A DNA stretch of 64,000 nt from Burkholderiales bacterium (GTDB taxonomy: Bacteria > Pseudomonadota > Gammaproteobacteria > Burkholderiales > SG8-39). The notes under the pieces are model-generated. The model did no database searches and had not been told where the DNA came from. It saw only the letters and a program-made list of their open reading frames with translations. The stretch's first letter is position 1, and each line of letters opens with the position of its first letter. Below, in pieces: positions 7,764 through 53,419 of this stretch. The DNA is taken from assembly GCA_965279075.1 (NCBI GenBank), contig CBDIHI010000009.1, positions 2,863-66,862 of the forward strand, in the 5' to 3' direction. The translations under genes were made by a program, and so were the position numbers.

Positions 7764-7770
7764 GCCACCC

Positions 7771-35199: not shown

Positions 35200-35500
35200 C
35201 AAAAACTCCTTTTAATTTCGGTAACTTAAATATTTCTCTTGAGAATTGGTCGGAGGTATCTCCTTACGCGCTTGAGGGTAGCGCCATCAGGTGAAGACCA
35301 CAAGTGGCTTTCTGGGGAATGCTACGGGCTGACAAGTGGCATGTTGTATTTTCACAACACCGTTAAATGCAACCATTTGTGCAAGAAAACTGCCGTTTTG
35401 CGGCGTCACGGCATCCGAGTCGCCAACCGTGTTTCCTGTAAAGTGCGCGTCGACCTGAAGGGCCCCCGTGCCATCAAGGCTTGCCGAAGCCGCGCCCAAA
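35200..35500. promoter_or_regulatory. AT-rich divergent promoter region shared by tpsB/tpsA and ccmABCD
   Basis: Markedly AT-rich (e.g. ttttaatttcggtaacttaaatatttctc) between divergent genes; no specific site assigned. Confidence 0.5.
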
Positions 35501-35515
35501 TGCGATGAATCCAGC

Positions 35516-36157: not shown

Positions 36158-36834
36158 ACGGTTCCCTACTCTCAGCCGTGCGCTGCGTGGTTGCAAGGGA
36201 CCTCCTGATCGTTTTGCGCAACAGGTCCGACGCCGCGAACACGCTGCTCTTTTTCGCAATCGTGGTCAGCCTCTTCCCCCTGGGTGTGGGCCCCGAAACC
36301 GCGCTCCTGCGCACGATTGCCCCCGGCGTGCTGTGGGTCGCCGCGCTGCTGGCCTCGATGCTGGCCCTGGCACGCCTGTTCGCGGCCGACCATGCCGACG
36401 GGACCCTTGAGCAGTTGACGCTTTCGCCGCATCCGCTCGGCCTGCTGGTCGCCGGCAAGGTGTTCGCCCACTGGCTGGTGTCAGGCTTCCCGCTGGTGCT
36501 CGCGGCGCCGTTGCTCGGCCTCCAGTACGGCCTGGGACCCGAGGCGGTGATCATGCTCGTCGCCTCGCTTGCGCTCGGCACGCCTGTGCTGAGCCTGCTC
36601 GGGGCCGTCGGCGCGGCCCTCACGCTGGGCCTGCGGGGCAGCGGTGCGCTCGTTTCGCTGATAGTGCTCCCGCTCTGCATCCCGGTGTTGATCTTCGGCG
36701 CGGGCGCCGTGGATGCGGTGGCCGGCGGCCTGAGCGCCGGCCCGCACCTGTCGCTGATCGGCGCCTACCTGCTGCCCGGCGTGCTTTTCGGTCCGTGGGC
36801 CACCGCAGTGGCCATTAGAATCGCGCTCGAGTAG
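36154..36834 (+). CDS. ccmB: Heme exporter CcmB
   Basis: SLFPLGVGP, PGVLWVAALLAS, LFAADHADGTLEQL, LPLCIPVLIFG; ATGA overlap. Confidence 0.93.
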   Translation: MNGSLLSAVRCVVARDLLIVLRNRSDAANTLLFFAIVVSLFPLGVGPETALLRTIAPGVLWVAALLASMLALARLFAADHADGTLEQLTLSPHPLGLLVAGKVFAHWLVSGFPLVLAAPLLGLQYGLGPEAVIMLVASLALGTPVLSLLGAVGAALTLGLRGSGALVSLIVLPLCIPVLIFGAGAVDAVAGGLSAGPHLSLIGAYLLPGVLFGPWATAVAIRIALE

Positions 36835-36854
36835 CGCCCCCACTCGAGGACCCC

Positions 36855-37601
36855 ATGAGCGGCACCATCCACTGGTTCAAGTACTCCTCACCCCAGGCGT
36901 TCTACCCGCTTGCGGGCCTGCTCGCCCCGTGGTTCTTCGCGGCGGCGGCGATCCTGGCGGCGGCCGGACTGTACCTGGGCTTCTTGGTCGCCCCGACCGA
37001 CGCGCAGCAGGGAGAGGCCTACCGTGTCATCTACATCCACGTTGCCGCGGCCTGGATGTCGATGTTCCTGTATCTCGTGATGGCGTTCTGGGCCGGTGTC
37101 GGCCTCGCATTCAACACCCGGCTGTCTTCGATGATGGCTTCGGCGATCGCGCCCACCGGCGCCCTGATGACGTTCATCGCGCTGTGGACCGGCGCGCTCT
37201 GGGGCAAGCCGACCTGGGGCACCTGGTGGGTCTGGGATGCGCGCCTGACCTCCGAACTGATCCTGCTCTTCCTTTACCTGGGCTTCATCTCGCTGCAGGC
37301 CGCCATCGACGATCCGCGCCGCGCCGACAAGGCCGGCGCCGTGCTCGCGCTGGTAGGCGTGATCAACGTGCCGATCATCTACTTTTCCGTGCAATGGTGG
37401 AACACGCTGCATCAGGGCGCCTCGGTCAGCATGACCAAGAGCCCCAGCATGGCGGCCACCATGCTGTGGGGCATGCTGGTGATGGCGCTGGCGTTCTGGA
37501 TGTATTCGATCGGTGCCGCCCTGACGCGCGTGCGCGCGATCATCCTCGAGCGCGAGCGGCACACCGACTGGGCGAGGGAACTGGGGGGGATTCGCCGATG
37601 A
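36855..37601 (+). CDS. ccmC: Heme transporter CcmC
   Basis: WWD domain WGKPTWGTWWVWDARLTS, IYIHV, WWNTLHQ. Confidence 0.96.
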   Translation: MSGTIHWFKYSSPQAFYPLAGLLAPWFFAAAAILAAAGLYLGFLVAPTDAQQGEAYRVIYIHVAAAWMSMFLYLVMAFWAGVGLAFNTRLSSMMASAIAPTGALMTFIALWTGALWGKPTWGTWWVWDARLTSELILLFLYLGFISLQAAIDDPRRADKAGAVLALVGVINVPIIYFSVQWWNTLHQGASVSMTKSPSMAATMLWGMLVMALAFWMYSIGAALTRVRAIILERERHTDWARELGGIRR

Positions 37602-37762
37602 AATGGGAAAGCCTGTCGGCGTTCATCGCCATGGGGGGGTACGGGGTCTACGTTTGGGGGTCGTATGTGGTGAGCGCCGCCGTGCTCGGTATCGAGGTGT
37701 GGCTGCTCATAGCTCGCCATCGGGAGGCGCGGCGCCGGATCGCCGGATCCGTAGAGCCCTAG
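37598..37762 (+). CDS. ccmD: Heme exporter protein CcmD
   Basis: MKWESLSAFIAMGGYGVYVWGSY, the typical CcmD motif; ATGA overlap with ccmC. Confidence 0.9.
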   Translation: MKWESLSAFIAMGGYGVYVWGSYVVSAAVLGIEVWLLIARHREARRRIAGSVEP

Positions 37763-39724
37763 GGAGCGCGCTTCGGCAGCGCTTTCAGCCGCGCGAGGTT
37801 GTTCTTCGCATCCGCATAGCCCGGGTCGATTCGCAGCGCTTGCTCGAAGCGCTCCATTGCCCTTTCGAACTCACTCCTGCCGATGAGCAGGACACCGAGG
37901 TTGTTGTGCGCCTGCGCATAGCTGGGCTTCAACCGCAATGCCGCTTCGTATTGCTCAATCGCTTCTGCGGAACGGCCGGTAGAGGCCCATAGGTTCCCCA
38001 GATGGAAGTGGACCTCCGGAAAATCCGGCTGGATCCTCGCGGCCTCCCGATAGTGATGTATCGCTTCGTCGATCTTTTCCGTCGCCGCCAGCGAAATCCC
38101 GATCTTGAAGTGGGCCTCCGCCGAGTCGGGCTTTAGCCGCAGCTCTCCCCGGTAGCGGCTGATCGCCTCGTCATGCTGGCCGATTGCAGCGAGGACGAGC
38201 GCGAGGTTGTAGTTCGCCTGATAGTAGCCGGGCTTCAGCGCCAGGGCGGTCCGGTAGTGCCTGGCAGCCTCAACAGGCTCTCCGTGCTGCGCGAGCGCAT
38301 GACCGAGGTTCAGGAGGACCCTCGGATTCTCCGGTGCGTGGATGAACGTAGCCTGCCAGATCGAAAGTTCGGTGGCGTAGTCCTTGTTGCGCAGGAATGT
38401 GGTTACGCCGAGGGCCACCGCCACAGCGGCGAGGACGCCAATGCCGAGCAAGCGCGCTGATGCCGGCGCCAGCCGCCCACGACTCGCGGATTCCTTTGCG
38501 CCCGCATGCGCTGCCAGCACCAGCAGCGCGATCACGCCCGCCAGCGGCAGGTACATGCGGTGTTCAAACACCGGATCCTGCAAAGGCACGATGCTCGAAG
38601 TCGGCGACAGGATCATGAAGAACCACGCCCCCAGGAACGCCCACGGCTTGCGCTTCAGCACGCCCCACTGCGTCGCCCCCGCGAGCAGCCCGATCGCCAG
38701 CGCCGCCGGCAGAATGTCGCCAGCACCTCCCGGCACCTTCCAGTCATAGTCAAGCACCAGCGGGTTCGGCCACAGCGTCAGGCTCAGGTAGTGAAGGATC
38801 ACGCCCGGTTGCGTCACGGCATAGGCCCATGAACGCGATTGCCCTTTGGCAGCTTCTACGCCTCCCTTGTCGGCATACATGCGCACCAAGTCTCCGGTTG
38901 ATGCGATCAGGTAGGCGAGCAATGTCCAGGTGAGCACCATCCCCGCGTACACCCACCATCGCTTCGACAGCGCCTCCCTGAACGACCCCGCCAGGAAGCA
39001 CCGGCGTACAACAGCACCACCGCCGGCGCCGTCACCATCACCTCCTTCGCGCTCATCCCAAGCAGGCACGCAGCAATCGCACCGGCATACCACCCCGCAG
39101 GCCGCGCCGACCCCGCACCCCTGATCACGCAGAACAGCACCAGCAGGTAGAACAACGCCACCAACGACTCGGCCCTCTGCACGATGTAGGTCACCGACTC
39201 CGTCTGCAACGGGTGCACTGCCCAAAGCAGCGCGATCGCAAACGACAGCCCCACCGCCCCACCCCCGAACTTCTCGCGCAGCGCCGGCAGCGCAAACGAA
39301 CGCCTCAGCACCCCGAACAGGAGCAGCGCGTTGGCCAGGTGGATCGCAAGATTCACCGCGTGGTAGCCCCACACGTTCAACCCGCCGAGCGCGTAGTTCA
39401 AGGCAAACGAAAAGTTCAGCAGCGGCCGGCCTCCGCTCGTCGTCCCCGGGGGTGGCGACAGCACCGGACCGAGCGGCCAAAGATTACGGATGGTCGGGTT
39501 GTCTTTGATAGCGCCAATGTCGTCGAAGACGAACTCGCCGGACAAACTATTCGAATACACCGCCAACACCGCGACTACAAGTGCAACAACGGACCACAAC
39601 GCACCATTCAACGTCAGTTGTGTGCCCACTGCCTTCGCCACAGGAACCGCCGCGCTCGGACTGGCCCGCCCCCCCCTTGGCGGAACCCCTTCCGGCCACC
39701 CGCGGCACGCTCACGACGCCTCAA
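37759..39724 (-). pseudogene. TMTC-like GT-C/TPR glycosyltransferase copy A, interrupted by two -1 frameshifts (pseudogene or sequencing errors)
   Basis: Split into ORFs 38907..39641 and 37759..39480. Relative to the next paralog, one base is missing at ~39004 (AAGCACCGG-CGTAC vs AAGCACCGGTCGTAC) and one in a C8 run at 39669-39676; five TPRs. Confidence 0.8.
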
Positions 39725-41481
39725 TTTCGCCCCTGACCCGTCAACACCCGCAACTTCTCCAGGTTCCCCTTCGCATCGATGTACGTCGGGTTGATCAACA
39801 ACGCCTTCTGGAAATGCCCGAAGGCTTTGTCAAACTCCCCTCTGCCGGCAAGCACGGCCCCCAGATTATTGTGCGCTTCAGCGGAATTCGGGTTCAACCG
39901 AAGCACCTCCTCGTATCGCGATATAGCTTGATCTGCCTGCCCTGTCGTCGCCTCGGCATTCCCCAGATTGAGAATCGCCTCGGCATACTGGGGTCTCATC
40001 TTCAATGCTTCGTGATAATGCTCCATTGCCTCTTTTAGATTTCCCTTCTTCGCGAGCGCAAATCCAAGATTCACGTGAACCCTGGGACTGTCAGGCGCCT
40101 TTTGGAAGGTGTCCTGCCAGATGGCTAGCTCTGTGGCGTAGTCCTTGTTGCGCAAGAAGGTCGTCGTGCCGAGCGCCGCTACCAGTACGGCGAGGACGCC
40201 AATGCCGAGCAAGCGCGCCGATCCCGGCGCCAGCCACCCACGACTCGCGGATTCCTTTGCGCCCGCATGCGCTGCCAGCACCAACAATGCGATCACCCCC
40301 GCCAACGGCAGGTACATCCGGTGCTCAAACACCAGGTCCCGCAAAGGCACGATGCTCGAGGTCGGCGACAGGATCACGAAGAACCACGCTCCAAGGAACG
40401 CCCAAGGCGTGCGCTTCTGCACGCCCCAAAGCGTCGCCCCCGCGAGCAGCCCGACCGTCAGCGCCGCCGGCAGGATCTCCGCGAGCCCTTTCGGTACCGG
40501 CCACTGGTAGTCGAGCACAAGGGGATGCGGCCACAGCGCCAACCGCAGGTAATGCAGGACCACCCCAGGCTGGGTCGCGACATAGCCCAACCTGCTCGAT
40601 TCGACCGGGGCCGCGCCTTCCTTGTCGAGGTACAGGCGGACCAAGTCTCCGGTTGATGCGATCAGGTAGGCGAGCAATGTCCAGGTGAGCGCCATCCCCG
40701 CGTACACCCACCACCGCTTCGACAGCGCCTCCCTGAACGACCCCACCAGGAAGCACCGGTCGTACAACAGCACCACCGCCGGCGCCGTCACCATCACCTC
40801 CTTCGCGCTCATCCCAAGCAGGCACGCAGCAATCGCACCGGCGTACCACCCCGCAGGCCGCGCCGACCCCGCGCCCCGGATCACGCAGTACAGCACCGCG
40901 AGGTAGAACAGCCCCACCAGCGACTCGGCCCGCTGCACGATGTAGGTCACCGACTCCGTCTGCAGCGGGTGCACCGCCCACAGCAGCGCGATCGCGAACG
41001 ACAGCCCCACCGTCGCCCCACCGAACCGCTCACGCAACGCCGGTAGCGACAACGAGCGCCTCACCACCCCGAACAGGAGAAGCGCGTTGGTCAGGTGGAT
41101 CGCCACGTTCACCGCGTGGTAGCCCCACACGTTCAACCCGCCCAGCGCATAGTTCAGCGCAAACGACAGGTTCAGCAGCGGCCGGCCCCCGCTCGTGATG
41201 CCCGGAGGAGGCGACAGCACCGGACCGAGCGGCCATAGATTACGGATGGTCGGGTTGTCTTTGATAGCGCCAATATCGTCGAAAATGAACTCGCCGGAAA
41301 AGCCGTTCGAATATGCAGCCAGCACCGCGACCACCAGAGCAACGACAGACCACAACGCACCATTCAACGTCGGTTGAGTGCCCGCTGCCTTCGCCGCAGG
41401 AACCGCCGCGTTCGGACTGGCCCGCACCTCCCCTTGGCGGGACCCCTTCCGGCCACCTGTAGCACGCTCACGGCGCCTCAA
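39721..41481 (-). CDS. TMTC-like membrane glycosyltransferase (GT-C, DUF1736-like) + 3 TPR, copy B
   Basis: EFIFDD, RPLLNLSFALN, HPLQTESVTYI, KE, FEHRMYLP, RNKDY, then NNLG-type TPRs. Confidence 0.85.
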   Translation of the reverse strand: MRRRERATGGRKGSRQGEVRASPNAAVPAAKAAGTQPTLNGALWSVVALVVAVLAAYSNGFSGEFIFDDIGAIKDNPTIRNLWPLGPVLSPPPGITSGGRPLLNLSFALNYALGGLNVWGYHAVNVAIHLTNALLLFGVVRRSLSLPALRERFGGATVGLSFAIALLWAVHPLQTESVTYIVQRAESLVGLFYLAVLYCVIRGAGSARPAGWYAGAIAACLLGMSAKEVMVTAPAVVLLYDRCFLVGSFREALSKRWWVYAGMALTWTLLAYLIASTGDLVRLYLDKEGAAPVESSRLGYVATQPGVVLHYLRLALWPHPLVLDYQWPVPKGLAEILPAALTVGLLAGATLWGVQKRTPWAFLGAWFFVILSPTSSIVPLRDLVFEHRMYLPLAGVIALLVLAAHAGAKESASRGWLAPGSARLLGIGVLAVLVAALGTTTFLRNKDYATELAIWQDTFQKAPDSPRVHVNLGFALAKKGNLKEAMEHYHEALKMRPQYAEAILNLGNAEATTGQADQAISRYEEVLRLNPNSAEAHNNLGAVLAGRGEFDKAFGHFQKALLINPTYIDAKGNLEKLRVLTGQGRN

Positions 41482-43760
41482 TTTCGCCTCTGCCCCGACA
41501 ACACCCGCAACTTCTCCAGGTTCCCCTTCGCATCGGCATAGCCCGGATTCAAGCGCAACGCTTCGCTGAACGCACGTGATGCGCCGTCGAAATCCCCCTT
41601 TCCTGCAAGCAGCACCCCGAGGTTGTTATGCACTTCCGCACTCCCCGGCACCAGCCGGAGCGCCTCCCGATAATGCGCAATCGCATTGTCGGCCTGTCCC
41701 GAGGCCGCCTCCGCACTCGCGAGATTGAGGATCGGTTTGGGAGAGTCGGGACTCAATCTCACGGCCTCGCGAAAATGCGCCAGAGCCTCTTCCTTCCGCC
41801 TTGCCTCGAAAAGGAGCCTGCCCAGGTTGATGCGCGCATCCACGTAGCCCGGATTCAATTTCAGCGCCATCTCATACTCGCCGATGGCCTCTCCGGTCCG
41901 GCCGATGCGCGCCAAAGCCACGCCAAAATTGTATCTGCCGAGGTAGGACGAAGGGTCGGACCGCAGCGCTGCCCGATACTGCTCCATCGCGATGTCCGCC
42001 CGACCCGTCAACGACAGCGCGTTCCCCAAGTTGATCCGCGCTTCCACAAAACCTGGCCGCAGGCGCAGGGCCTGTTCGTAGTCCGTGATGGCGTCACCGA
42101 CCCTCCCGACCTTCGCCTGGACGAACCCCAGGTTGTTGTATGGCTCGGCATAACCGGGACTCAACCGTATGGCCTCCCGGTAGTGGCCAACCGCTTCCTC
42201 GAGCTGCCCCAACGCCACCAGCGCAACGCCCAGGTTGTTGTGCGCCTCCGGATAGTTTGCCTTTCGCCGGAGGGCCGCCCTGTAGTGAAAGATCGCCTCC
42301 TCGTACCGGCCGGTTCGCGCCAGAGCCTCACCCAGGTTCAAATTGACTCTCGCCTTGCCGGGGGCATGGACTATCGTGTCCCTCCAGATCGAAAGTTGGT
42401 TGGCGTAGTCCGTATTCCGGCGGACGGTCAGCGCGCCGAATATCGCTGCCACCGCGACCAGGAGGACTACACCGATCGTCACGGCAGCCCGAGGGCTCAT
42501 CTGGTACCGCGAAACTACGTCTCGCGCACCCGCGTACCCCATGACCACTGTCACGCCCAGGACCGCGGCCAGGGGGAGATACATCCTGTGCTCGAAAGCA
42601 AGGTCTTCCAAAGGCACGATGCTTGAGGTCGGCGAAAGGATCAGGAAGAACCAGGCGCCCGCGAAGGCCCACGGCTTTCGCGCGATCACCCCCCAAACCG
42701 TCGCCGCCACCAGGGCACCGATCGCGAAGAGCGACGGCAGGGCTTCACCCAGACCTTTTGCCACAGGCCAGTCGTAGTCCAGCACGAGCGGACTCGGCCA
42801 GAATGAGAGCCGCAAGTAGTGCAATATGACGCCGCCCTGGGTGAGGGCATATGTCCACGGCTCGTAGCCGTCCTTCGATCCACCACTTTCAGCGTACAGC
42901 TTGAATAGTTCCCCCGTCGATACGACCAGGTACGCAAGCAGTACCCAGCTGAGCGCCAATCCGGCGTAGAACCACGCACGACGCCGCAGCGCCAGGCCGA
43001 ACGAACCCGCCAGGAAAATCCCGTCATAGGCGAGTACTGCCACCGGGGCAGTAACCATGACCTCCTTCGTCGCCATGCCCAAGAAGCACGCAATGACCGA
43101 TGCCGCATGCCAGGCCGCTGCTCGCCCCGGCTCAGCCCCCCGTATTGCACAGTACAGGGTCAGAAGGTAAAGCAGCGCGACCAGTGATTCGGCGCGCTGG
43201 ATGACGTAGGTAACCGATTCGGTTTGGAGGGGATGCAGCGCCCAAAGCAGGGCAACGGCAAACGAAAGCGGCACGCCTGCATCGCCGAGCTTTTTCCGCA
43301 CAACAGCCAATGACAAGGTGCGGCGCAGAATGCCGAACAGGAGCAGTGCATTGGCAATGTGGATCGCGACATTGACCGCGTGATAACCCCATACTTGCAA
43401 GCCCCCCAGCGCGTAGTTGAGCGCGAAGGAGAAATTAAGCAGCGGACGGGTGTGAACCTGCTGGTTGAGCCCCGCAGACCATGCGCATGGCGTCGAGCAC
43501 TGCCCCAGGGGCCAGAGCTGCCTTATCGTCGGATTGCCGTCTATTCCTCCGAAGTCGTCGAAAACGAACTCGTTGAACAGGCTGTTGGCATAGACGGCGA
43601 GCACGCACAGGACGATGACCCCGACCAGCCAGCCCGCGCCGCGCGAAGCCATCTCCCGTCCGGCGCGGGAAGCTTCCGGCGGGCCCGCAGAGGGGCGGGG
43701 AGGTTCTCCCCTGCGGCGCGCCTTTTTCCCCGCAGCGTAGTGCCGGTCGCTGCGCGCCAT
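41478..43760 (-). CDS. TMTC-like glycosyltransferase + 8 TPR, copy C (most divergent)
   Basis: EFVFDD, HPLQTESVTYV, FEHRMYLP, RRNTDY; eight TPRs. Confidence 0.85.
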   Translation of the reverse strand: MARSDRHYAAGKKARRRGEPPRPSAGPPEASRAGREMASRGAGWLVGVIVLCVLAVYANSLFNEFVFDDFGGIDGNPTIRQLWPLGQCSTPCAWSAGLNQQVHTRPLLNFSFALNYALGGLQVWGYHAVNVAIHIANALLLFGILRRTLSLAVVRKKLGDAGVPLSFAVALLWALHPLQTESVTYVIQRAESLVALLYLLTLYCAIRGAEPGRAAAWHAASVIACFLGMATKEVMVTAPVAVLAYDGIFLAGSFGLALRRRAWFYAGLALSWVLLAYLVVSTGELFKLYAESGGSKDGYEPWTYALTQGGVILHYLRLSFWPSPLVLDYDWPVAKGLGEALPSLFAIGALVAATVWGVIARKPWAFAGAWFFLILSPTSSIVPLEDLAFEHRMYLPLAAVLGVTVVMGYAGARDVVSRYQMSPRAAVTIGVVLLVAVAAIFGALTVRRNTDYANQLSIWRDTIVHAPGKARVNLNLGEALARTGRYEEAIFHYRAALRRKANYPEAHNNLGVALVALGQLEEAVGHYREAIRLSPGYAEPYNNLGFVQAKVGRVGDAITDYEQALRLRPGFVEARINLGNALSLTGRADIAMEQYRAALRSDPSSYLGRYNFGVALARIGRTGEAIGEYEMALKLNPGYVDARINLGRLLFEARRKEEALAHFREAVRLSPDSPKPILNLASAEAASGQADNAIAHYREALRLVPGSAEVHNNLGVLLAGKGDFDGASRAFSEALRLNPGYADAKGNLEKLRVLSGQRRN

Positions 43761-45703
43761 CAGCGCTTCTGCCGCGAGAGCGCGGCCAGCCTGTCGAGAT
43801 TGGCCCTTGCGTCGGCATACGCCGGGTTGATCCGCAGCGCTTCTCGGAACTCACGGTGCGCATTTTCGATGTCGCCGCGACCCGCCAGCATGGCACCCAG
43901 ATTGTTGTGCGCCTCCGCGGAATCCGGCAACGCCTTCAGCACCTCGCGGTAGCGCCCGATCGCGCTCTCCGACCGCCCCAATGCCGCCTCAGCATTGCCA
44001 AGGTTCAGCAGGGCCTCGGGATACCCGGGCCGCAGCTTGAGCGCCTCGAGGTAGTGAACGATAGCCTCTTCGTTCCGCCCCATCCTTGCGAGTTCATAAC
44101 CCAGATTCACGCGAGCTCCCGGGCTGCCCGGCGCCTTGGCGAGTTCATCAACTTGTTTCCTGGCGGCCAGCACGACACTCAGATTGTATTCAGCTTCGGC
44201 GTAGTCGGGTTTCAACCTGAGAGCCTCGCGATAGTGCTCGATCGCCTTGTCCAGCGCGTCCTTCTCGGACAGCGCGTTCGCCAGGCCAAAGTGAACCCTT
44301 GGATTGTCCGGGGCCTTGAGGAGTGTGTCCTGCCATATCGAAATGCCGCTGGCGTAGTCGTTGTTGCGCAGGAAGGTCGTCGTGCCGAGCGCCACTACCA
44401 GTACGGCGAGGACGCCAATGCCGAGCAAGCACGCCGATCCCGGCGCCAGCCAACCGCGGCGCGTGAGTTCCTTTGCGCCCGCATGCACCGCCAGCACCAG
44501 CAGCGCGATCACCCCCGCCAACGGCAGGTACATCCGGTGCTCAAACACCAGGTCCCGCAGTGGAACGATGCTCGAAGTCGGCGACAGGATCATGAAGAAC
44601 CACGCGCCCAGGAAACCCCACGGCTTACGCTTCAGCACACCCCACAGCGTCGCCCCCGCGAGCAACCCGACCGTCAGCGCCGCCGGCAGAATGTCGCCAG
44701 CACCTCCCGGCAACTTCCAGTCATAGTCAAGCACCAGCGGATTCGGCCACAGCGTCAGGATCAGGTAGTGAAGGATCACGCCCGGCTGCATCACGGCATA
44801 CGCCCACGAACGCGATTGCCCTTTGGCAGCTTCTACGCCTTCCTTGTCGGCATACATGCGCACCAAGTCTCCGGTTGATGCGATCAGGTAGGCGAGCAAC
44901 ACCCAGGTAAGCGCCATTCCCGCGTACACCCACCACCGCTTCGACAGCGCCTCCCGGAACGACCCCGCCAGGAAGTAACGGTCGTACAACAGCACCACCG
45001 CCGGCGCCGTCACCATCACCTCCTTCGCGCTCATCCCCAGCAAGCACGCGGCAATCGCACCGGCGTACCACCCCGCAGGCCGCGCCGACCCCGCACCCCG
45101 GATCACGCAGTACAGCACCAGCAGGTAGAACAGCCCCACCAGCGACTCGGCCCGCTGCACGATGTAGGTCACCGACTCCGTCTGCAGCGGGTGCACTGCC
45201 CACAACAAGGCGATGGCAAGTGAAAGCGCGATCGCCGCCTCGCCGTACTTCTCGCGCAGCGCCGGCAGCGCGAACGTGCGCCGCAGCACGCCGAACAGGA
45301 GCAGCGCGTTGGCCAAATGGATTCCAAGATTCACCGCGTGGTAGCCCCACACGTTCAATCCGCCGAGCGCGTAGTTCAACGCAAACGACAGGTTCAGCAG
45401 CGGCCGGCCCCCGCTCGTGATGCCCGGAGGAGGCGACAGCACCGGCCAGAGCGGCCAGAGCTCCCGTATCGTCGGATTGCTCTTGATGGCCCCGACATCG
45501 TCGAAGACGAACTCTCCCGAGAAACTGTTCGAGTACGCGCCGAGCACCGCCAGCACGAGCAAACCGATGGCCCACAAGGCAGCCCTCGACGACTGCATCA
45601 GACCAGAGGATTCTTGTACGACTTGCCCAGCCTGCGGCCGGGGAGGCACCTCCCTGCGATGCGAACTCCCGCGAGGGTTCGAGCCTCGTTCGTTGCGCCT
45701 CAA
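43760..45703 (-). CDS. TMTC-like glycosyltransferase + 4 full and 1 truncated TPR, copy D
   Basis: Same motif set; TTG start overlapping the upstream stop. Confidence 0.85.
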   Translation of the reverse strand: MRRNERGSNPRGSSHRREVPPRPQAGQVVQESSGLMQSSRAALWAIGLLVLAVLGAYSNSFSGEFVFDDVGAIKSNPTIRELWPLWPVLSPPPGITSGGRPLLNLSFALNYALGGLNVWGYHAVNLGIHLANALLLFGVLRRTFALPALREKYGEAAIALSLAIALLWAVHPLQTESVTYIVQRAESLVGLFYLLVLYCVIRGAGSARPAGWYAGAIAACLLGMSAKEVMVTAPAVVLLYDRYFLAGSFREALSKRWWVYAGMALTWVLLAYLIASTGDLVRMYADKEGVEAAKGQSRSWAYAVMQPGVILHYLILTLWPNPLVLDYDWKLPGGAGDILPAALTVGLLAGATLWGVLKRKPWGFLGAWFFMILSPTSSIVPLRDLVFEHRMYLPLAGVIALLVLAVHAGAKELTRRGWLAPGSACLLGIGVLAVLVVALGTTTFLRNNDYASGISIWQDTLLKAPDNPRVHFGLANALSEKDALDKAIEHYREALRLKPDYAEAEYNLSVVLAARKQVDELAKAPGSPGARVNLGYELARMGRNEEAIVHYLEALKLRPGYPEALLNLGNAEAALGRSESAIGRYREVLKALPDSAEAHNNLGAMLAGRGDIENAHREFREALRINPAYADARANLDRLAALSRQKR

Positions 45704-47580
45704 TTGCGCCTCTGCTTTGTGAGCGCCGACAGCTTTTCCAGATTCCGCTTCGCTTCATTGGAATTCGGGTCAATCCTGAGCGCCTCTCTGAACTGTGCAT
45801 CAGCTTTGTCAATCTCACCTCGGCCGAAAAAAATAATGCCAAGATTATTGTGCGGCTCAGCGAATGCAGGCCTGATACTCAGCGCCTGCAAGTACTGGTT
45901 CGTCGCCTCTCCGGTCGCCCCCTCCATTGCGAGCAAGTTCCCCATATTGTTGTGGGCTTCGGCAAAGCGGGGTTTCAGTCTCAACGCTTCGCGATAATGC
46001 CCCATGGCTTCGTCGCGCTGTCCCGCCGCGGCGAGCGCAACTCCCAGATTGTTGTGAGCGTCCGCAAAATCGGGCTTCAAACTGATTGCTTTCCGATAAA
46101 AGCCAATAGCCTCGCCGACCTGGCCAAGCGCAACCAAGGCTGCCCCGACATTGCTGTAAGGCCTCGGATTTCCAGGCACCTTGAGGATCGTGTCCTGCCA
46201 GAGTCCGACCGCGCTTGCGTAGTCCTTGTTCCTCTGGAAGGTCAGCCCCCCCAGGACCACTGCCAGCAGCACTGCGGCAGTCAGGCCCAGCGTCAGCGAG
46301 GGGGCCTCTATCCACCCACGGCTCACGGCAGCCCTGCCACCCGCATACACCACCAGCACCAGCAGCGCGATCACCCCCGCCAACGGCAGGTACATCCGGT
46401 GTTCGAAGATCGGCCCGGAGAAGGCATCGAACAAGGGCACGATGCTCGAGGTAGGCGACAGGATCATGAAGAACCACGCCCCCAGGAACGCCCACGGCTT
46501 GCGCTTCAGCACGCCCCACAGCGTCGCCCCCGCAAGGAACGCAATCGCCAGCGCCGCCGGCAGGACCTCCCCCACACCCCCGGGCGCCGGGCGACCGTAG
46601 TCCAGCACCAGGGGATGCGGCCACAGCGTCAGGCGCAGGTAGTGCAGGATCGCGCCCGGTTGCGTCGCCGCGTAGGCCAGCGGCCCCGAATCCACCGGCG
46701 CTGCGCCACCCGTGCTGCCCTTGTCGGCGTACAGCCGCACAAGGTCCCCCGTCGAGGTGATCAGGTACCCAAGCAGCACCCAGGTCAGCGCCATCCCCGC
46801 GTACATCCACCACCGCTTCGACAGCGCCTCCCGGAACGACCCCGCAAGGAAGTAACGGTCGTACAGCAGCACCACCGCCGGCGCTGTCACCATCACTTCC
46901 TTTGCGCTCATCCCCAGCAGGCACGCGGCAATCGCACCGGCGTACCACCCCGCAGGCCGCGCCGACCCCGCGCCCCGGATCACGCAGTACAGCACCGCGA
47001 GGTAGAACAGCCCCACCAGCGACTCGGCCCGCTGCGCGATGTAGGTCACCGACTCCGTCTGCAGCGGGTGCACCGCCCACAGAAGCGCGATCGCGAACGA
47101 CAGCGCCACCGCCGCCCCACCGAACCGCTCACGCAGCGCCGGTAGCGACAACGAGCGCCTCACCACCCCGAACAGGAGCAGCGCGTTGGCCAGGTGGATC
47201 GCAAGATTCACCGCGTGGTAGCCCCACACGTTCAACCCGCCCAGCGCGTAATTCACCGCAAACGACAGGTTCAGCAGCGGCCGGCCCGTACTCGTCATCC
47301 CCGGCGGCGGCGACAGCACCGGCCAGAGCGGCCAGAGCTCCCGTATCGTCGGATTGCTCTTGATGGCCCCGACATCGTCGAAGACGAATTCTCCAGAGAA
47401 ACTGTTCGAGTACGCGCCGAGCACCGCCAGCACGAGCAAACCAATGGCCCACAAGGCGGCCTTCGACGACCACATCAGACCAGAGGATTCTTGTACGACT
47501 TGCCCGGCCCGCGGCCGGGGAGGCGCCTCCACGCGAGGCGATCCCCCGCGAGGCTTCGCGCCGCGTTCTTTACGCCTCAA
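45700..47580 (-). CDS. TMTC-like glycosyltransferase + 4 TPR, copy E
   Basis: Same motif set; core near-identical to copies F and G. Confidence 0.85.
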   Translation of the reverse strand: MRRKERGAKPRGGSPRVEAPPRPRAGQVVQESSGLMWSSKAALWAIGLLVLAVLGAYSNSFSGEFVFDDVGAIKSNPTIRELWPLWPVLSPPPGMTSTGRPLLNLSFAVNYALGGLNVWGYHAVNLAIHLANALLLFGVVRRSLSLPALRERFGGAAVALSFAIALLWAVHPLQTESVTYIAQRAESLVGLFYLAVLYCVIRGAGSARPAGWYAGAIAACLLGMSAKEVMVTAPAVVLLYDRYFLAGSFREALSKRWWMYAGMALTWVLLGYLITSTGDLVRLYADKGSTGGAAPVDSGPLAYAATQPGAILHYLRLTLWPHPLVLDYGRPAPGGVGEVLPAALAIAFLAGATLWGVLKRKPWAFLGAWFFMILSPTSSIVPLFDAFSGPIFEHRMYLPLAGVIALLVLVVYAGGRAAVSRGWIEAPSLTLGLTAAVLLAVVLGGLTFQRNKDYASAVGLWQDTILKVPGNPRPYSNVGAALVALGQVGEAIGFYRKAISLKPDFADAHNNLGVALAAAGQRDEAMGHYREALRLKPRFAEAHNNMGNLLAMEGATGEATNQYLQALSIRPAFAEPHNNLGIIFFGRGEIDKADAQFREALRIDPNSNEAKRNLEKLSALTKQRRN

Positions 47581-50500
47581 TTTCGCCTCTGCTTCGCAAG
47601 CGCCGACAGCTTCTCGAGGTTCGCCATCGCATCGGCATAACCCGGGTCGATGCGCAGCGCCTGGCTGAATTCCTCGAACGCCTTGTCATACTCCCCCCTG
47701 CCAGCAAGCATGGCGCCGAGATTGTTGTGGGCTTCTGCATAGTCGGGACTCAACCTCAGCGCCTCCCGGAAATGCGCAATGGCCCTGTCGGATTGCCCCA
47801 CCGCTGCTTCGGCATTTCCGAGGTTGAGGTGCGCCTTTACATATCCGGGCTTCAGCCGCAATGCCTCCCGATAGTGCGCCATGGCCTCACCCAACCGCCC
47901 TGCCGCGGCCTGGGCCTTGCCAAGGTTGAGATGCGCCTCCGCATAGTTAGGCCTGAACCGAAGCGCCGCCCTGTAATGGCCCATGGACTCTTCGGTTCTA
48001 CCCTTTGCCGCAACCACAAGGCCCAGGTTGTAGTGAGCTTCGGCGTAATCGGGTCTGATCCTGAGCGCTTCGCGATAGCTCTGGATGGCCCTGTCCAACT
48101 GGCCGGCTTCGGACAGCGCGTTCCCGAGACCCATATGCACCCGCGCGTTCCCGGGCACCTTGAGGATCGTGTCCTGCCAGAGTCCGACCGCGCTTGCGTA
48201 GTCCTTGTTCCTCTGGAAGGTCAGCCCCCCCAGGACCACTGCCAGCAGCACTGCGGCAGTCAGGCCCAGCGTCAGCGAGGGGGCCTCTATCCACCCACGG
48301 CTCACGGCAGCCCTGCCACCCGCATACACCACCAGCACCAGCAGCGCGATCACCCCCGCCAACGGCAGGTACATCCGGTGTTCGAAGATCGGCCCGGAGA
48401 AGGCATCGAACAAGGGCACGATGCTCGAGGTAGGCGACAGGATCATGAAGAACCACGCCCCCAGGAACGCCCACGGCTTGCGCTTCAGCACGCCCCACAG
48501 CGTCGCCCCCGCAAGGAACGCAATCGCCAGCGCCGCCGGCAGGACCTCCCCCACACCCCCGGGCGCCGGGCGACCGTAGTCCAGCACCAGGGGATGCGGC
48601 CACAGCGTCAGGCGCAGGTAGTGCAGGATCGCGCCCGGTTGCGTCGCCGCGTAGGCCAGCGGCCCCGAATCCACCGGCGCTGCGCCACCCGTGCTGCCCT
48701 TGTCGGCGTACAGCCGCACAAGGTCCCCCGTCGAGGTGATCAGGTACCCAAGCAGCACCCAGGTCAGCGCCATCCCCGCGTACATCCACCACCGCTTCGA
48801 CAGCGCCTCCCGGAACGACCCCGCAAGGAAGTAACGGTCGTACAGCAGCACCACCGCCGGCGCTGTCACCATCACTTCCTTTGCGCTCATCCCCAGCAGG
48901 CACGCGGCAATCGCACCGGCGTACCACCCCGCAGGCCGCGCCGACCCCGCGCCCCGGATCACGCAGTACAGCACCGCGAGGTAGAACAGCCCCACCAGCG
49001 ACTCGGCCCGCTGCGCGATGTAGGTCACCGACTCCGTCTGCAGCGGGTGCACCGCCCACAGAAGCGCGATCGCGAACGACAGCGCCACCGCCGCCCCACC
49101 GAACCGCTCACGCAGCGCCGGTAGCGACAACGAGCGCCTCACCACCCCGAACAGGAGCAGCGCGTTGGCCAGGTGGATCGCAAGATTCACCGCGTGGTAG
49201 CCCCACACGTTCAACCCGCCCAGCGCGTAATTCACCGCAAACGACAGGTTCAGCAGCGGCCGGCCCGTACTCGTCATCCCCGGCGGCGGCGACAGCACCG
49301 CACCCAGCGGCCACAGCCGGACTATGCTCCCGTTGTTCTGTATCACCCCGACATCGTCGAAGACAAACACGCAACGGAAACTGTTCGCGTACACAGCAAG
49401 TATCGCCACAGCCAAAACCAGAACCGGCCATGAGTCCCGCCACATCCACGGCATCCCGACCCCGAGGCTTGACTGCATTCCTCCCGTTGGCTGGCTGTGT
49501 GCCACGGTCTTGGCGCTATGCTTTTTTCGTGGGGGCATGCGAGACGGATGATTGTGAGTTCAGGGCGACTTGCGAGAATTATCGGGCCGGCTTGCCGCCG
49601 AGTTCCGCAAGCCGTTCAAGGTTCTTCCTCGCCTCAATAGAATTCGGGTCAATCCTGAGGGCTTCCTTGAATTGGGCGGCAGCCTTCGCGATTTCGCCCC
49701 TGCCGAAATAGATGACGCCCAGATTGCTGTGCGGCTCCGCGAAATCGGGCCTCAAATTCAGCGCTTGCCGATAGTGCCCGACAGCCTCGTCAGTCGCTCC
49801 GGCCATGGCAAGCAAGTTTCCCAGATTGTTATGTGCCTCGGCAAAGTGGGGTTTCAACTTCAGCGCCTCGCGGTAGTGCGTCATCGCTTCGTCGTGCCGA
49901 CCGGCCGCAGCGAGCGCCACGCCCAGGTTGTTATGTGCATCAGCAAATCCCGGCCTCAGCCTGAGCGCCTCCTGGTAATGGCGAACAGCCTCGCCAGTGC
50001 GACCCAGCGCGACCAAGGCTACCCCTATATTGCTGTAGGGCTCCGCGGAATCGGGCTTCAGCTTCAGCGCTTCGCGATAGTGTGCAATTGCCTCTGGCAT
50101 CAGCCGCATCGCGGTCAACGCCTTCCCGAGGTTGTTGTGAGCTTCGGCGTAATCGGGTCTGATCCTGAGCGCTTCGCGATAGCTCTCGATGGCCCTGTCC
50201 AGCTGGCCGGCTTCGGACAGCGCGTTCCCGAGGCCCATATGCACCCGCGCGTTCCCGGGCACCTTGAGGATCGTGTCCTGCCAGAGTCCGACCGCGCTTG
50301 CGTAATCCTTGTTCCTCTGGAAGGTCAGCCCCCCCAGGACCACTGCCAGCAGCACTGCGGCAGTCAGGCCCAGCGTCAGCGAGGGGGCCTCTATCCACCC
50401 ACGGCTCACGGCAGCCCTGCCACCCGCATACACCACCAGCACCAGCAGCGCGATCACCCCCGCCAACGGCAGGTACATCCGGTGTTCGAAGATCGGCCCG

Positions 50501-51400
50501 GAGAAGGCATCGAACAAGGGCACGATGCTCGAGGTAGGCGACAGGATCATGAAGAACCACGCCCCCAGGAACGCCCACGGCTTGCGCTTCAGCACGCCCC
50601 ACAGCGTCGCCCCCGCAAGGAACGCAATCGCCAGCGCCGCCGGCAGGACCTCCCCCACACCCCCGGGCGCCGGGCGACCGTAGTCCAGCACCAGGGGATG
50701 CGGCCACAGCGTCAGGCGCAGGTAGTGCAGGATCGCGCCCGGTTGCGTCGCCGCGTAGGCCAGCGGCCCCGAATCCACCGGCGCTGCGCCACCCGTGCTG
50801 CCCTTGTCGGCGTACAGCCGCACAAGGTCCCCCGTCGAGGTGATCAGGTACCCAAGCAGCACCCAGGTCAGCGCCATCCCCGCGTACATCCACCACCGCT
50901 TCGACAGCGCCTCCCGGAACGACCCCGCAAGGAAGTAACGGTCGTACAGCAGCACCACCGCCGGCGCTGTCACCATCACTTCCTTTGCGCTCATCCCCAG
51001 CAGGCACGCGGCAATCGCACCGGCGTACCACCCCGCAGGCCGCGCCGACCCCGCGCCCCGGATCACGCAGTACAGCACCGCGAGGTAGAACAGCCCCACC
51101 AGCGACTCGGCCCGCTGCGCGATGTAGGTCACCGACTCCGTCTGCAGCGGGTGCACCGCCCACAGAAGCGCGATCGCGAACGACAGCGCCACCGCCGCCC
51201 CACCGAACCGCTCACGCAGCGCCGGTAGCGACAACGAGCGCCTCACCACCCCGAACAGGAGCAGCGCGTTGGCCAGGTGGATCGCAAGATTCACCGCGTG
51301 GTAGCCCCACACGTTCAACCCGCCCAGCGCGTAGTTCACCGCAAACGACAGGTTCAGCAACGGCCGGCCCGTGCTCGTGATCCCCGGCGGCGGCGACAGC
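46170..51400 (-). repeat. Three near-identical ~1.1-kb direct repeats (cores of TMTC copies E, F, G)
   Basis: Identical shadow ORFs at 46226, 48205 and 50309 (offsets 1979 and 2104 bp); identical protein cores. Confidence 0.9.
47577..49538 (-). CDS. TMTC-like glycosyltransferase + 5 TPR, copy F
   Basis: VFVFDD, HPLQTESVTYI, FEHRMYLP, RNKDY, TPRs. Confidence 0.85.
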   Translation of the reverse strand: MPPRKKHSAKTVAHSQPTGGMQSSLGVGMPWMWRDSWPVLVLAVAILAVYANSFRCVFVFDDVGVIQNNGSIVRLWPLGAVLSPPPGMTSTGRPLLNLSFAVNYALGGLNVWGYHAVNLAIHLANALLLFGVVRRSLSLPALRERFGGAAVALSFAIALLWAVHPLQTESVTYIAQRAESLVGLFYLAVLYCVIRGAGSARPAGWYAGAIAACLLGMSAKEVMVTAPAVVLLYDRYFLAGSFREALSKRWWMYAGMALTWVLLGYLITSTGDLVRLYADKGSTGGAAPVDSGPLAYAATQPGAILHYLRLTLWPHPLVLDYGRPAPGGVGEVLPAALAIAFLAGATLWGVLKRKPWAFLGAWFFMILSPTSSIVPLFDAFSGPIFEHRMYLPLAGVIALLVLVVYAGGRAAVSRGWIEAPSLTLGLTAAVLLAVVLGGLTFQRNKDYASAVGLWQDTILKVPGNARVHMGLGNALSEAGQLDRAIQSYREALRIRPDYAEAHYNLGLVVAAKGRTEESMGHYRAALRFRPNYAEAHLNLGKAQAAAGRLGEAMAHYREALRLKPGYVKAHLNLGNAEAAVGQSDRAIAHFREALRLSPDYAEAHNNLGAMLAGRGEYDKAFEEFSQALRIDPGYADAMANLEKLSALAKQRRN

Positions 51401-51651
51401 ACCGGCCAGAGCGGCCAGAGCCGGACTATGCTCCCGTTGTTCTGTATCACCCCGACATCGTCGAAGACAAACACACCACGGAAGCTATTCGCGTACACAG
51501 CAAGTATCGCTGCAGCGAGTATCACCAACGACAGGGCGACACTGTGGTTTCGGAGGTTGTCACCGGCCATCGCCCCGGGCAGGCCGTGGATCCCCTCCTG
51601 CCCGGCCCGGCGCCCCTTGCGTCGCGGTGTAGTGCGGCTCGGACGCTTCAA
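49579..51651 (-). CDS. TMTC-like glycosyltransferase + 6 TPR, copy G
   Basis: C-terminal part of ORF 49579..52887. Probable start is TTG 51651 just after the ccmI stop (alternative ATG 51570). Confidence 0.82.
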   Translation of the reverse strand: MKRPSRTTPRRKGRRAGQEGIHGLPGAMAGDNLRNHSVALSLVILAAAILAVYANSFRGVFVFDDVGVIQNNGSIVRLWPLWPVLSPPPGITSTGRPLLNLSFAVNYALGGLNVWGYHAVNLAIHLANALLLFGVVRRSLSLPALRERFGGAAVALSFAIALLWAVHPLQTESVTYIAQRAESLVGLFYLAVLYCVIRGAGSARPAGWYAGAIAACLLGMSAKEVMVTAPAVVLLYDRYFLAGSFREALSKRWWMYAGMALTWVLLGYLITSTGDLVRLYADKGSTGGAAPVDSGPLAYAATQPGAILHYLRLTLWPHPLVLDYGRPAPGGVGEVLPAALAIAFLAGATLWGVLKRKPWAFLGAWFFMILSPTSSIVPLFDAFSGPIFEHRMYLPLAGVIALLVLVVYAGGRAAVSRGWIEAPSLTLGLTAAVLLAVVLGGLTFQRNKDYASAVGLWQDTILKVPGNARVHMGLGNALSEAGQLDRAIESYREALRIRPDYAEAHNNLGKALTAMRLMPEAIAHYREALKLKPDSAEPYSNIGVALVALGRTGEAVRHYQEALRLRPGFADAHNNLGVALAAAGRHDEAMTHYREALKLKPHFAEAHNNLGNLLAMAGATDEAVGHYRQALNLRPDFAEPHSNLGVIYFGRGEIAKAAAQFKEALRIDPNSIEARKNLERLAELGGKPAR

Positions 51652-51665: not shown

Positions 51666-52937
51666 CTAAGGCACGACGCTGTCGATGGCGATCGCCACGC
51701 CCTTGGCGCCGACCTTCACCGGCGAGCTCGTGCCCTGCAAGTCGCCGCTCTGCGAAATCGCGTTGCCGGATTTCGAAATGCGCGCGCTGACCGTGACTTC
51801 TGCAAAGGCGGACAGCTTCAGCTCGGGACTCATCGCAAGCGCATCGTCCAGCACGAACTCGAGCGGCAGGTCCGACACGCGCTTCCTCAGCACCGCCAGC
51901 GGGATGCGCGGCCCGTTCACCGCGCGCGCGACGATGAACAGCGTGTCCTGCGCGCCCGCTTTCGCTGCGAGCCCGGGACTCAGCGTGACGCGCCCGCTCA
52001 CGCTCGCCCCGGCGACCGCCCTGCCCTCCGCAGCCTTTGGCGTCACAGCCTTGGTTTCCGCCCTGGCCACCGGCTTCACCGCCGCGCCAGACGGGGCCTT
52101 GATCCCGCCCAGTTCGCGTGCTTCGGCGATCCCGCCGGCAATCGACTTCCCCATCTCCGAGTCGGCAGGCAGCAGCGGCAGCAGCTTCTCCCAGTAGGCG
52201 AGCGCGCCCGGATAGTCCTTGCGGAAGAACGCCGCCGAGCCCGCCATCGCCAGCGCCTTGGGATGCACCGGGTCGATCTTCAACGCCGCCGTAACGAGCT
52301 CGAGGGCCTTGCCCTCGAGCTTGCGGCCCTGGCTCATTGCCAATGCGTCGGCATAGTCCGCAAGGAAATCCGCGTCGTCGGTGATGGTCTTTGCCGCCTT
52401 CTCGAAAGCCGCCACGGCCTCGGGCATGCGCTGCAGGACATAGTAGGACCGCGCTAGCATCATCCAGCCGCGGGGGTCGTCCGGGTTCTTCGCAAGCCGC
52501 TCGGCAAGGCGCGCGACCATCTCGTCGACCTCGGCGGAGGTCACCTGCTGCTCGGCCGGCAGCGCCTCGGGGCGCAGGCCGTCGGGTTGCCCGATCCACA
52601 GGTACATCGACAGCGCGACCGCCGGGATCAGGATCGCGAGCAAGGCGGCCACCGTGCGGCCGCCAGGTGATTCGGCAAACGTTCCGGCCTGCCCGACCTC
52701 TCCTTCCTCCAGCACCCTGCGTTCGAGCTCCGCCCTGGCGCTGGCGTATTTTTCCGCGGATAGCGTCCCCGCGCCGAGGTCGGCCTCGAGCTCGGCAAGC
52801 TGGGCCCGCAGGATCGCGAGGTTCGACGCGCCGTTGCCCGCACCTGCGGGCGACGCGCGGCGGCGCATCAGGGGTACGACGACCCACAGTACGGCCGCCA
52901 GCGTCATCAATACCGCAAGGAACACGAAGCCCTTCAT
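51666..52937 (-). CDS. ccmI: Cytochrome c biogenesis protein CcmI/CycH (TPR)
   Basis: NLAILRAQLAELEAD...ELERRVL, NPDDPRGWMMLARSY, C-terminal LFIVARA...PLAV...LDDALAM...ARISKSG. Confidence 0.9.
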   Translation of the reverse strand: MKGFVFLAVLMTLAAVLWVVVPLMRRRASPAGAGNGASNLAILRAQLAELEADLGAGTLSAEKYASARAELERRVLEEGEVGQAGTFAESPGGRTVAALLAILIPAVALSMYLWIGQPDGLRPEALPAEQQVTSAEVDEMVARLAERLAKNPDDPRGWMMLARSYYVLQRMPEAVAAFEKAAKTITDDADFLADYADALAMSQGRKLEGKALELVTAALKIDPVHPKALAMAGSAAFFRKDYPGALAYWEKLLPLLPADSEMGKSIAGGIAEARELGGIKAPSGAAVKPVARAETKAVTPKAAEGRAVAGASVSGRVTLSPGLAAKAGAQDTLFIVARAVNGPRIPLAVLRKRVSDLPLEFVLDDALAMSPELKLSAFAEVTVSARISKSGNAISQSGDLQGTSSPVKVGAKGVAIAIDSVVP

Positions 52938-53419
52938 GCCGCGCCTTTGCCCGTGCCGTCGCCGAGCAGTGCCGCAGCGCGCGCGCGCTCCTCGTCCGTC
53001 AGTACCTCGACGGGGCCGGCGCGCTTCGCGCGGCCGCGCAGGTTGCGCCACAGTGCAAAACCCCCTGCCAGCAGCAGCAGGCCCGGACCGAACCACAACA
53101 GCAGCGTAGTGGCCTTCATCGGCGGCTTGTAGAGCACGAAGTCACCGTAGCGCTGCACCATGAACGAGATGATCTCTGCGTCGCTGCGGCCCTGCGCGAT
53201 CTGCTCCCGCACCTGGCGGCGCAGGTCCTGCGCGAGCTCGGCATTGGAATCGGCGATGGTCTGGTTCTGGCAGACGAGGCAGCGCAGGTTCTCCTCGAGT
53301 TCGATGGCGCGCTTCTGCATGACTCGGTCGGCGTTGGTGGGCACCGCGTCGGCCGCCACGGCGAGCACGGGGGCGAACGCCAGCAACAGCGCGCAGAGGC
53401 CTTTGGCGAGCGAGCTCAT
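52934..53419 (-). CDS. ccmH: Cytochrome c biogenesis protein CcmH
   Basis: LRCLVCQNQTIADSNAELA and RYGDFVLYKPP. Confidence 0.94.
   Translation of the reverse strand: MSSLAKGLCALLLAFAPVLAVAADAVPTNADRVMQKRAIELEENLRCLVCQNQTIADSNAELAQDLRRQVREQIAQGRSDAEIISFMVQRYGDFVLYKPPMKATTLLLWFGPGLLLLAGGFALWRNLRGRAKRAGPVEVLTDEERARAAALLGDGTGKGAA

Follow-up and report, generated by a model that had tools for sequence, protein, structure and literature searches.

What do seven tandem copies of one gene contribute at the end of a ccmEFGHI unit? The question is raised by a 64,000-nt stretch of contig CBDIHI010000009.1 from a Burkholderiales bacterium (referred to as the window; all coordinates count from its first letter), in which seven co-oriented paralogs (T1–T7) occupy positions 37759–51651 of the minus strand, six of them intact (586–760 aa) and one, T7, broken. 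Each intact copy joins an N-terminal core of ~440 aa to a tail of tetratricopeptide repeats (TPRs). From their sequences and by way of their relatives, the copies were assigned with high confidence to TMTC-like enzymes of the GT-C/PMT clan, and proteins of the periplasm or the cell surface are their probable glycosylation targets. The reading favored here, with some reserve, is that the region is an acquired island of such enzymes that would glycosylate Ser/Thr residues in the periplasm from a polyprenyl-phosphate-sugar donor, with the acceptors recruited by the TPRs. Periplasmic protein O-glycosylation with acceptor choice encoded in the TPRs is the most likely function, as judged from sequence.

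Family identity and predicted architecture

All six intact copies contain the motifs F[VI]FDD, (G)RPLLN, HPLQTESV, QRAES, KEVMVT, LDY.., EHRMYLP, and RN.DY, and T7 contains the same set distributed over two halves, which bears out the motif set and the three to eight TPRs per copy that an earlier note on this DNA had described. In family alignments of 46 and 41 members the residues D68, R105, P106, H127, N130, H134, H176, P177, K232, D246, Y315, E390, and Y394 are invariant; D69 is retained by no fewer than 90% of the sequences in each alignment. The candidate acidic catalytic residue D68 lies in the first predicted extracytoplasmic loop of all copies, and the groups R189-x-E191, K232-E..T237, and E390-x-R392-x-Y394 are, by inspection, invariant or nearly so. 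A crude hydropathy analysis of the cores suggests ~10–11 helices, and the N-terminus carries 11 Lys and Arg residues in 43 aa. The predicted topology would place this Lys/Arg-rich N-terminus in the cytoplasm and both the FDD motif and the TPR tail in the periplasm. The tails are 143–313 aa long and were recognized as TPRs by Pfam models (E values down to 1e-59), with 3–8 units per copy.

The assignment to the TMTC-like enzymes is based on a set of 41 N-terminal cores that consists of four window cores, 36 relatives at 42–57% identity, and one bridge protein from the Opitutales (29% identity to T5). The PMT_2 model matched nine of the 41 cores (best E 3.2e-11), TMTC_DUF1736 matched four (best E 5.7e-5), and PMT matched one; no further family was matched by more than two. 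Against TMTC_DUF1736 (cut-off 27) the bridge protein reached 27.6 bits when its genome was searched and 22.4 bits with hmmscan, and hhalign aligned the window cores with it over 317 columns (probability 99.5%, E 2.6e-22). The DUF1736 stretch maps onto the loop between transmembrane helices 7 and 8, and the bridge protein contains YRP, GRAD, AKE, and ERFLY. All weak DUF1736 matches of one Planctomycetaceae genome (23/23) fell within family cores, and a search of 151 Verrucomicrobiota genomes with TMTC_DUF1736 gave matches only in the one genome already known. The PMT_2 model scored P0122 at 25.6 bits (cut-off 26.1). As a lead only, the clusters nearest to the T5 core in language-model (Atlas) features bear PMT_2 in 25 of 30 cases. 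The JGI label "protein O-mannosyl-transferase" is attached to seven of the 120 relatives listed, most others being labeled "TPR repeat protein". The family is very large: in a profile search of representatives at 50% identity, 69,481 clusters passed E ≤ 1e-3, of which 11,044 also passed E ≤ 1e-30, and in the 90% database at least 7895 matches at E ≤ 1e-3 were obtained from 8000 candidates scored.

Gene structure and acquisition of the array

The earlier note had described seven co-oriented, mostly overlapping paralogs that continue the ccmEFGHI unit, and this organization was confirmed with the exception that T7 is frameshifted (table 1). The spacing is 14 nt from ccmI to T1 and 40 nt from T1 to T2, followed by −4, −4, −1, −4, and −4 nt through T7. 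A single base that is present in all six paralogs is missing from T7 at 39004/39005 (a 1-nt deletion), and T7 therefore reads as two open reading frames (ORFs), an N-terminal half (38907–39641) with the first five motifs and a C-terminal half (37759–39480) with the last three. The T7 region is present in contigs of runs from three studies, and one 6.7-kb contig extends past 37700 toward ccmD; no RNA run was listed for this region. One contig, having an additional T at 39004, resembled an intact T7 and was rejected, since it carries T6-specific letters and represents the paralog T6; no T7-type contig across 39004/39005 was found among the contigs listed for run X3. Run X3 (one contig, depth 5.8) differs from the window and from runs X1 and X2 by one additional base in a G-run near 39668, toward the 5′ end of T7, and this longer form would connect the upstream TTG start with the remainder of the N-terminal half. 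The stop codon of ccmD (37760–37762, plus strand) overlaps that of T7 (37759–37761, minus strand) in a CTAG palindrome at 37759–37762, so that the island has no spacer at this end.

Table 1. Coordinates of the array, its identical core blocks, and neighboring genes in the window
Feature	Position	Strand	Description
T1	49579..51651	-	690 aa from TTG 51651; alternative ATG start at 51570; core and about 6 TPRs
T2	47577..49538	-	653 aa; about 5 TPRs
T3	45700..47580	-	626 aa; about 4 TPRs
T4	43760..45703	-	647 aa; 4 TPRs and one degenerate unit
T5	41478..43760	-	760 aa; about 8 TPRs; most divergent copy, core 57–60% identical to other copies
T6	39721..41481	-	586 aa; about 3 TPRs
T7	37759..~39724	-	Broken; C-terminal half with about 5 TPRs
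T1 core block	50306..51333	-	100% DNA identity to 48202–49229 (T2) and 46223–47250 (T3)
T2 block	48154..49300	-	1147 bp; identical to 46175–47321 in T3
ccmI/cycH	51666..53096	-	TPR and Ig-like domain; final gene of the ccmEFGHI unit, immediately precedes T1
ccmH, ccmG, ccmF, ccmE	52934..56634	-	Longest-ORF coordinates, starts not refined
ccmA, ccmB, ccmC, ccmD	35468..37762	+	Convergent on the array
TpsB (ShlB/POTRA_2)	33305..35197	-	Neighbor of the array
TpsA	19714..33162	-	4482 aa; Thr/Ser/Gly/Ala-rich; neighbor of the array
Multiheme cytochrome genes	56081–63907		Beyond ccmE

The copies differ mainly outside their cores. T1, T2, and T3 share 1028–1147 bp of identical core DNA with tails that are 59–76% identical in protein, and outside the core blocks the 5′ ends and TPR tails of these three genes drop to 55–76% identity; the remaining paralog pairs display shorter mosaic tracts. 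The identical cores carry what reads as the mark of gene conversion or of a very recent segmental duplication, homogenizing the core while the tails stay different, and may instead reflect an assembly artefact or polishing. The comparison was extended to the best 80 loci in species genomes (41–55% identity to the window copies). The arrays of these relatives follow the same trend in a milder form (cores 49–87%, tails 34–69% identity), and tandem arrays are common, with 27 of the best 80 loci containing 2–7 copies within 10 kb. A 6.5-Mb metagenome-assembled genome of the Planctomycetaceae (G041) contained 144 matches to the family profile, many of them in one mega-cluster (e.g., C4:2.49–2.65 Mb) and many of them fragments.

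The array is a horizontally acquired island of the Planctomycetota/Verrucomicrobiota type that was found only in this species among the congeners searched. All family matches in the 4.48-Mb genome fall within the array. No family member was identified in the 17 congeners searched, and weak matches were found in only two of 40 relatives (31–36% identity). In ten congeners ccmI and TpsB are located on one contig, and in eight of the ten their spacing is 2.55–2.64 kb, which leaves room for ccmABCD alone; a gene-by-gene check of one genome (G001) showed that ccmI abuts ccmD and that a TpsA N-terminus follows TpsB. Because the junction is closed in these eight congeners, the TpsAB-ccmABCD-ccmIHGFE layout is ancestral and the 13.9-kb array represents an insert at the convergent ccmI/ccmD junction. 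The majority of the best 80 loci (74) originate from the Planctomycetota, Verrucomicrobiota, and Lentisphaerota (PVC). The six intact copies form one clade in a quick maximum-likelihood tree (SH-aLRT 99, with T5 basal), which indicates one import followed by duplication. The GC content of the array is 64.6%, compared with 67.7% for the remainder of the window.

Two congeners carry other genes at the ccmI/ccmD junction. In G010 (L104, G010:C2:92000–111500; 1427–15808) the junction contains a different insert of 14.4 kb, co-oriented with ccmI, that encodes WbqC, an ArnC-like GT2, two methyltransferases, an acyl-AMP ligase (AMP-binding), a DegT aminotransferase, an SDR protein, and a polytopic protein of 730 aa whose first helix is followed by "DTD" and whose tail is TPR-like, for which hhalign and PDB searches returned no match. 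In G011 (L105, G011:C109; 4535–6303) the junction contains a PKMT-like protein-lysine methyltransferase, also co-oriented with ccmI. On the other side of TpsAB, the interval that separates TpsA from amino-acid transport genes (14854–19490) encodes an IS200-like transposase (14854–15438), a Ser/Thr protein kinase carrying a Sel1 repeat (15497–17713), and an adenylate/guanylate cyclase that includes an FHA domain (18606–19490).

Acceptors, donor, and alternative explanations

In the proposed mechanism a polyprenyl-phosphate-sugar donor would be made elsewhere in the genome. The catalytic FDD motif would be located on the first periplasmic loop, with RP, RxE, KE...T, and EHRxY on further loops, and the enzyme would move the sugar, in the periplasm, onto Ser/Thr residues of exported proteins recruited by the TPR tail. 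The core, nearly identical across the copies, would be kept uniform by gene conversion as the tails differ, and a shared core combined with different TPR tails would then pair a single chemistry with a set of different acceptor specificities. Located behind the last gene of ccmEFGHI, at its 3′ end, the island is probably transcribed by read-through from that unit.

Distant homologs point to a class of acceptors. Among other genomes of the same class, 65 out of 299 contained a match to the family profile at E ≤ 1e-30 (at most five candidates were scored per genome), with scores of 107–247 bits versus >600 bits for the window copies. The best place in 40 of these same-class genomes, with ~3 kb on each side, and one further locus were screened for pilin genes (n = 41), and a type IVa prepilin N-terminus was present in 28 of the 41 stretches. 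Of the 40 loci with a tblastn match (24–41% identity), 22 have such a prepilin gene on the same strand ≤1.5 kb upstream of the core. This linkage supports periplasmic protein O-glycosylation in general and provides a concrete acceptor class for part of the family; it lends no support to a system dedicated to TpsA or the cytochromes. The window contains no prepilin gene, and the five prepilin-like genes of the whole genome are all on other contigs.

Further pilin neighborhoods were observed at individual loci. At L113 a distant homolog is positioned between a major pilin and minor pilins and adjoins a PilC-like gene. Three PVC loci, L024 (2801, 4525, 6129), L034, and L066, contain prepilin-type N-termini (GFTLVELLVVIAIIGIL...) near family genes; at L024 they form a tandem of three that immediately precedes two family genes. 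A ~610-aa ORF of the Wzy_C type (O-antigen ligase/PglL-type) was found just downstream of a 220-aa pilin-like gene (G000:C6:9580–11379); Wzy_C proteins in the genome number four in all.

The earlier note had seen no GT2 donor synthase in the window, and indeed none of the 33 non-array ORFs scanned matched a GT2 family (a few window ORFs were left out of the scan). The genome-wide search for a polyprenol-phosphate sugar synthase that it had proposed did yield a candidate, an ArnC/PgfS-like GT2 encoded beside an ORF with a GtrA domain on contig C12, unlinked to the array. This GT2 matches NF007986 over its full length (E 5e-52) and the PgfS model (E 9e-43), both below the respective cut-off (a curated one for NF007986). 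A second GT2–GtrA pair, likewise unlinked to the array, is followed by a 543-aa ORF; hhalign and PDB searches with the 543-aa ORF after the GT2 and GtrA genes on C12 gave no match. Orthologs of either GT2 are absent from the 24 relatives searched (best identities 36% and 39%).

Several results weigh against the favored reading. The window cores match no Pfam or NCBIfam model at E ≤ 10 and no PDB entry by sequence or with two profiles (a lone NurA match at E 0.6 was attributed to chance), and genome-wide searches with the PMT_2 and TMTC_DUF1736 models left the array untouched. The direct match to DUF1736/TMTC that the earlier note had suggested looking for is thus missing from the window and present, weakly, in only four of the 41 cores of the family set; its assignment to a TMTC-like GT-C/TPR class is supported, at the level of sequence, through the PMT_2 and DUF1736 matches of the relatives and the conserved motifs, whereas the window cores themselves stay below the Pfam thresholds. 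The alignment of the family profile with 12 PMT_2 proteins by hhalign is weak (probability 8.8%, E 0.0038); in this weak register RP lies opposite the PP motif of the clan and K232 opposite its invariant Lys. The nearly invariant W331 is replaced by "GR" in T1–T3. The pilin linkage sits in a distant subfamily (median identity 29%), and in the window's own subfamily a prepilin-like gene was found near only three of the best 80 loci and an ArnC-like gene near a family gene in only one. Finally, the loop-4 motif YX6PFX7P of the pilin glycosyltransferase TfpW, discussed below, is present in none of the seven window copies and none of the 40 class homologs; in its place the window copies show Y-x6-P-x9-P.

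The location of the array raises the question of whether its neighbors are its substrates. The earlier note had proposed a periplasmic O-glycosylation system dedicated to the Thr/Ser-rich repeats of TpsA, with each TPR tail choosing sites. The composition of TpsA would suit this proposal: the protein, encoded 4.6 kb from the array, contains 20.4% Thr and 10.2% Ser (30.6% together) and is built from ~49 repeats of 66 aa (a 198-bp repeat present 49.2 times). It has a TPS domain in its first 400 residues (E 1.9e-35), and the missing Pfam match of the full-length protein is a search artefact caused by the long biased repeat. Streptococcal Pgf clusters offer a precedent, since they are described as encoding GT-A and GT-C enzymes together with their Ser/Thr-rich adhesins (available sections of PMC11092751), and the ccmI/ccmD junction holds other modification genes in G010 and G011. 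However, orthologous TpsB was found in 13 of the 15 congeners searched for it, all without the array, which is missing from all 17 congeners; the TpsB-ccmABCD-ccmI order is ancestral and received the array later; TpsB or a TPS domain occurs within 10 kb in none of the best 80 loci; and the array is co-oriented with ccm and not with tpsBA, from which ccmABCD separates it. A TpsA-specific system is therefore improbable. Glycosylation of c-type (multiheme) cytochromes during Ccm maturation, with the array co-expressed as the tail of ccmEFGHI, was the other substrate suggested and is more improbable still. In its favor, T1 begins directly past ccmI, terminator-like sites in the region are not above chance (11 found, 10.3 expected), multiheme cytochrome genes lie beyond ccmE, and the G010 and G011 inserts are likewise located downstream of ccmI and co-oriented with it. 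Yet CcmE, F, G, H, or C was found within 10 kb in none of the best 80 loci, the congeners mature their cytochromes without the array, and the weak TPR_CcmH_CycH matches of the tails are generic cross-hits between TPRs that also occur on most of the 120 relatives listed. The co-occurrence of TMTC-like arrays with TpsA and ccm loci that the earlier note had expected was thus not observed in these 80 loci, which have no recurrent non-family neighbor either (the top cluster was found in 13/80 and is represented by an ORF antisense to a family gene). Given the ancestral layout, the array-less congeners, and this lack of linkage, the position beside ccm and TpsAB is a landing site and not a conserved partnership.

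A broader proposal takes the ccmI/ccmD junction, beside the conserved TpsA, as a plug-in site used by species of this genus for alternative modules that modify envelope proteins (the PVC-derived array, the amino-sugar set of G010, and the methyltransferase of G011), with six TPR adaptors on one gene-converted core O-glycosylating several periplasmic or surface proteins, perhaps TpsA or multiheme cytochromes; taken as a whole, we regard this as speculative and rather unlikely. The acceptor might also be something other than a protein (lipid A or the lipopolysaccharide core as for ArnT, peptidoglycan, or exopolysaccharide), with the TPR tails serving as periplasmic scaffolds. Lipid A transferases of the ArnT type belong to PMT_2, the nearest Pfam family, periplasmic TPRs are also found in polysaccharide export proteins, and T5 scores 26.7 bits against Wzy_C_2, below the cut-off of 28.5. 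This alternative is nevertheless unlikely, since the pilin linkage of the distant homologs (22/40) points to protein acceptors, one core with many TPR tails fits many protein partners better than one glycan, and no polysaccharide genes recur beside family genes. Least probable of all is a decaying or silent import without present function. The frameshift in T7, the absence of the island from the congeners searched, and its lower GC content would agree with decay, but six copies retain full-length reading frames with every conserved motif, the gene overlaps of 1–4 nt are maintained, and the T7 region recurs in the contigs from three studies. Among these explanations, periplasmic protein O-glycosylation by an acquired set of TMTC-like enzymes is preferred.

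Comparison with known glycosylation systems

Several known glycosyltransferase systems differ from the array. HMW1C and EtpC are cytoplasmic GT41 N-glycosyltransferases of TpsA-type adhesins that are encoded alongside them, and their fold, compartment, and linkage all differ from those predicted for the array. The ArnT/PMT_2 clan (GT83, GT39) contains the nearest Pfam family, as reached through the relatives and the Atlas features; its enzymes have no TPR tail, and the direct profile comparison is not significant. The genome encodes a PMT_2 protein of its own elsewhere, as do all 17 congeners, and hhalign returned no match between this protein and the cores. The streptococcal Pgf and GtrB-PgtC2 systems are reported to O-glycosylate Ser/Thr-rich regions, including those of adhesins, outside the cytoplasm from undecaprenyl-phosphate sugars (available sections of PMC11092751). 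The PgfS match of the ArnC-like GT2, although below the cut-off, is shared with this system, whereas the Pgf GT-C is of the YfhO type (for which the array has no match), lacks a TPR tail, and is encoded in a cluster that includes the adhesin genes.

The eukaryotic TMTC1–4 enzymes (GT105) resemble the array proteins in architecture. Like the array proteins, for which the topology is predicted, they combine an N-terminal domain of ~11 helices with TPRs on the non-cytoplasmic side, and in both cases the paralogs differ mainly in their TPR tails. The motifs described for TMTC are M1 DD, M2 ..YRP, M3 RxD, M4 KE(T/Q)xxT, M5 DW, and M7 ERxxY, and human TMTC3 was reported to match a deltaproteobacterial GT/TPR protein in a BLAST search with E 3e-47 (both from the available sections of PMC7801869). 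Counterparts of M1, M2, M3, M4, and M7 (DD, YRP, RxD/E, KE...T, and E.R.Y) were matched in the array by inspection. In contrast, M5 DW is variable in the array (DYDW, DYQW, DYGR), the window copies miss the TMTC_DUF1736 model, which their relatives match only weakly, and the donor would be a bacterial polyprenyl-phosphate sugar and not dolichol-P-mannose. If the plug-in-site proposal were true, it would describe a bacterial parallel to the way in which the TMTC1–4 paralogs each choose their substrates.

A functional parallel is TfpW of Pseudomonas aeruginosa, a GT-C enzyme described as having 11 predicted helices, periplasmic TPRs, and a DDx motif in the first periplasmic loop, and as being necessary and sufficient for O-arabinosylation (D-arabinofuranosyl) of pilin Ser/Thr residues (available sections of bioRxiv 10.1101/2020.04.19.049825 and PMC11841053). 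The array proteins share the ~11 helices, the DD in loop 1, and the periplasmic TPR C-terminus as predicted features, and the distant same-class homologs share the pilA gene directly upstream of TfpW in 22/40 loci, whereas the array itself is not located beside a pilin gene. Because YX6PFX7P is absent, the parallel is one of context and architecture only. The view of the earlier note that bacterial homologs are largely uncharacterized agrees with the available sections of PMC7801869, and the literature consulted contained no functional study of bacterial TMTC-type GT-C/TPR proteins, one paper noting only that they exist; it does not extend to TfpW, a GT-C/TPR pilin enzyme that has been characterized. 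The array presents this architecture in a compact case, with six intact paralogs that combine one core with different tails in a 4.5-Mb genome of proteobacterial type. If its products O-glycosylate proteins and select their acceptors through the TPRs, they would represent a third Gram-negative route of periplasmic O-glycosylation beside the PglL/PilO-type oligosaccharyltransferases and TfpW.

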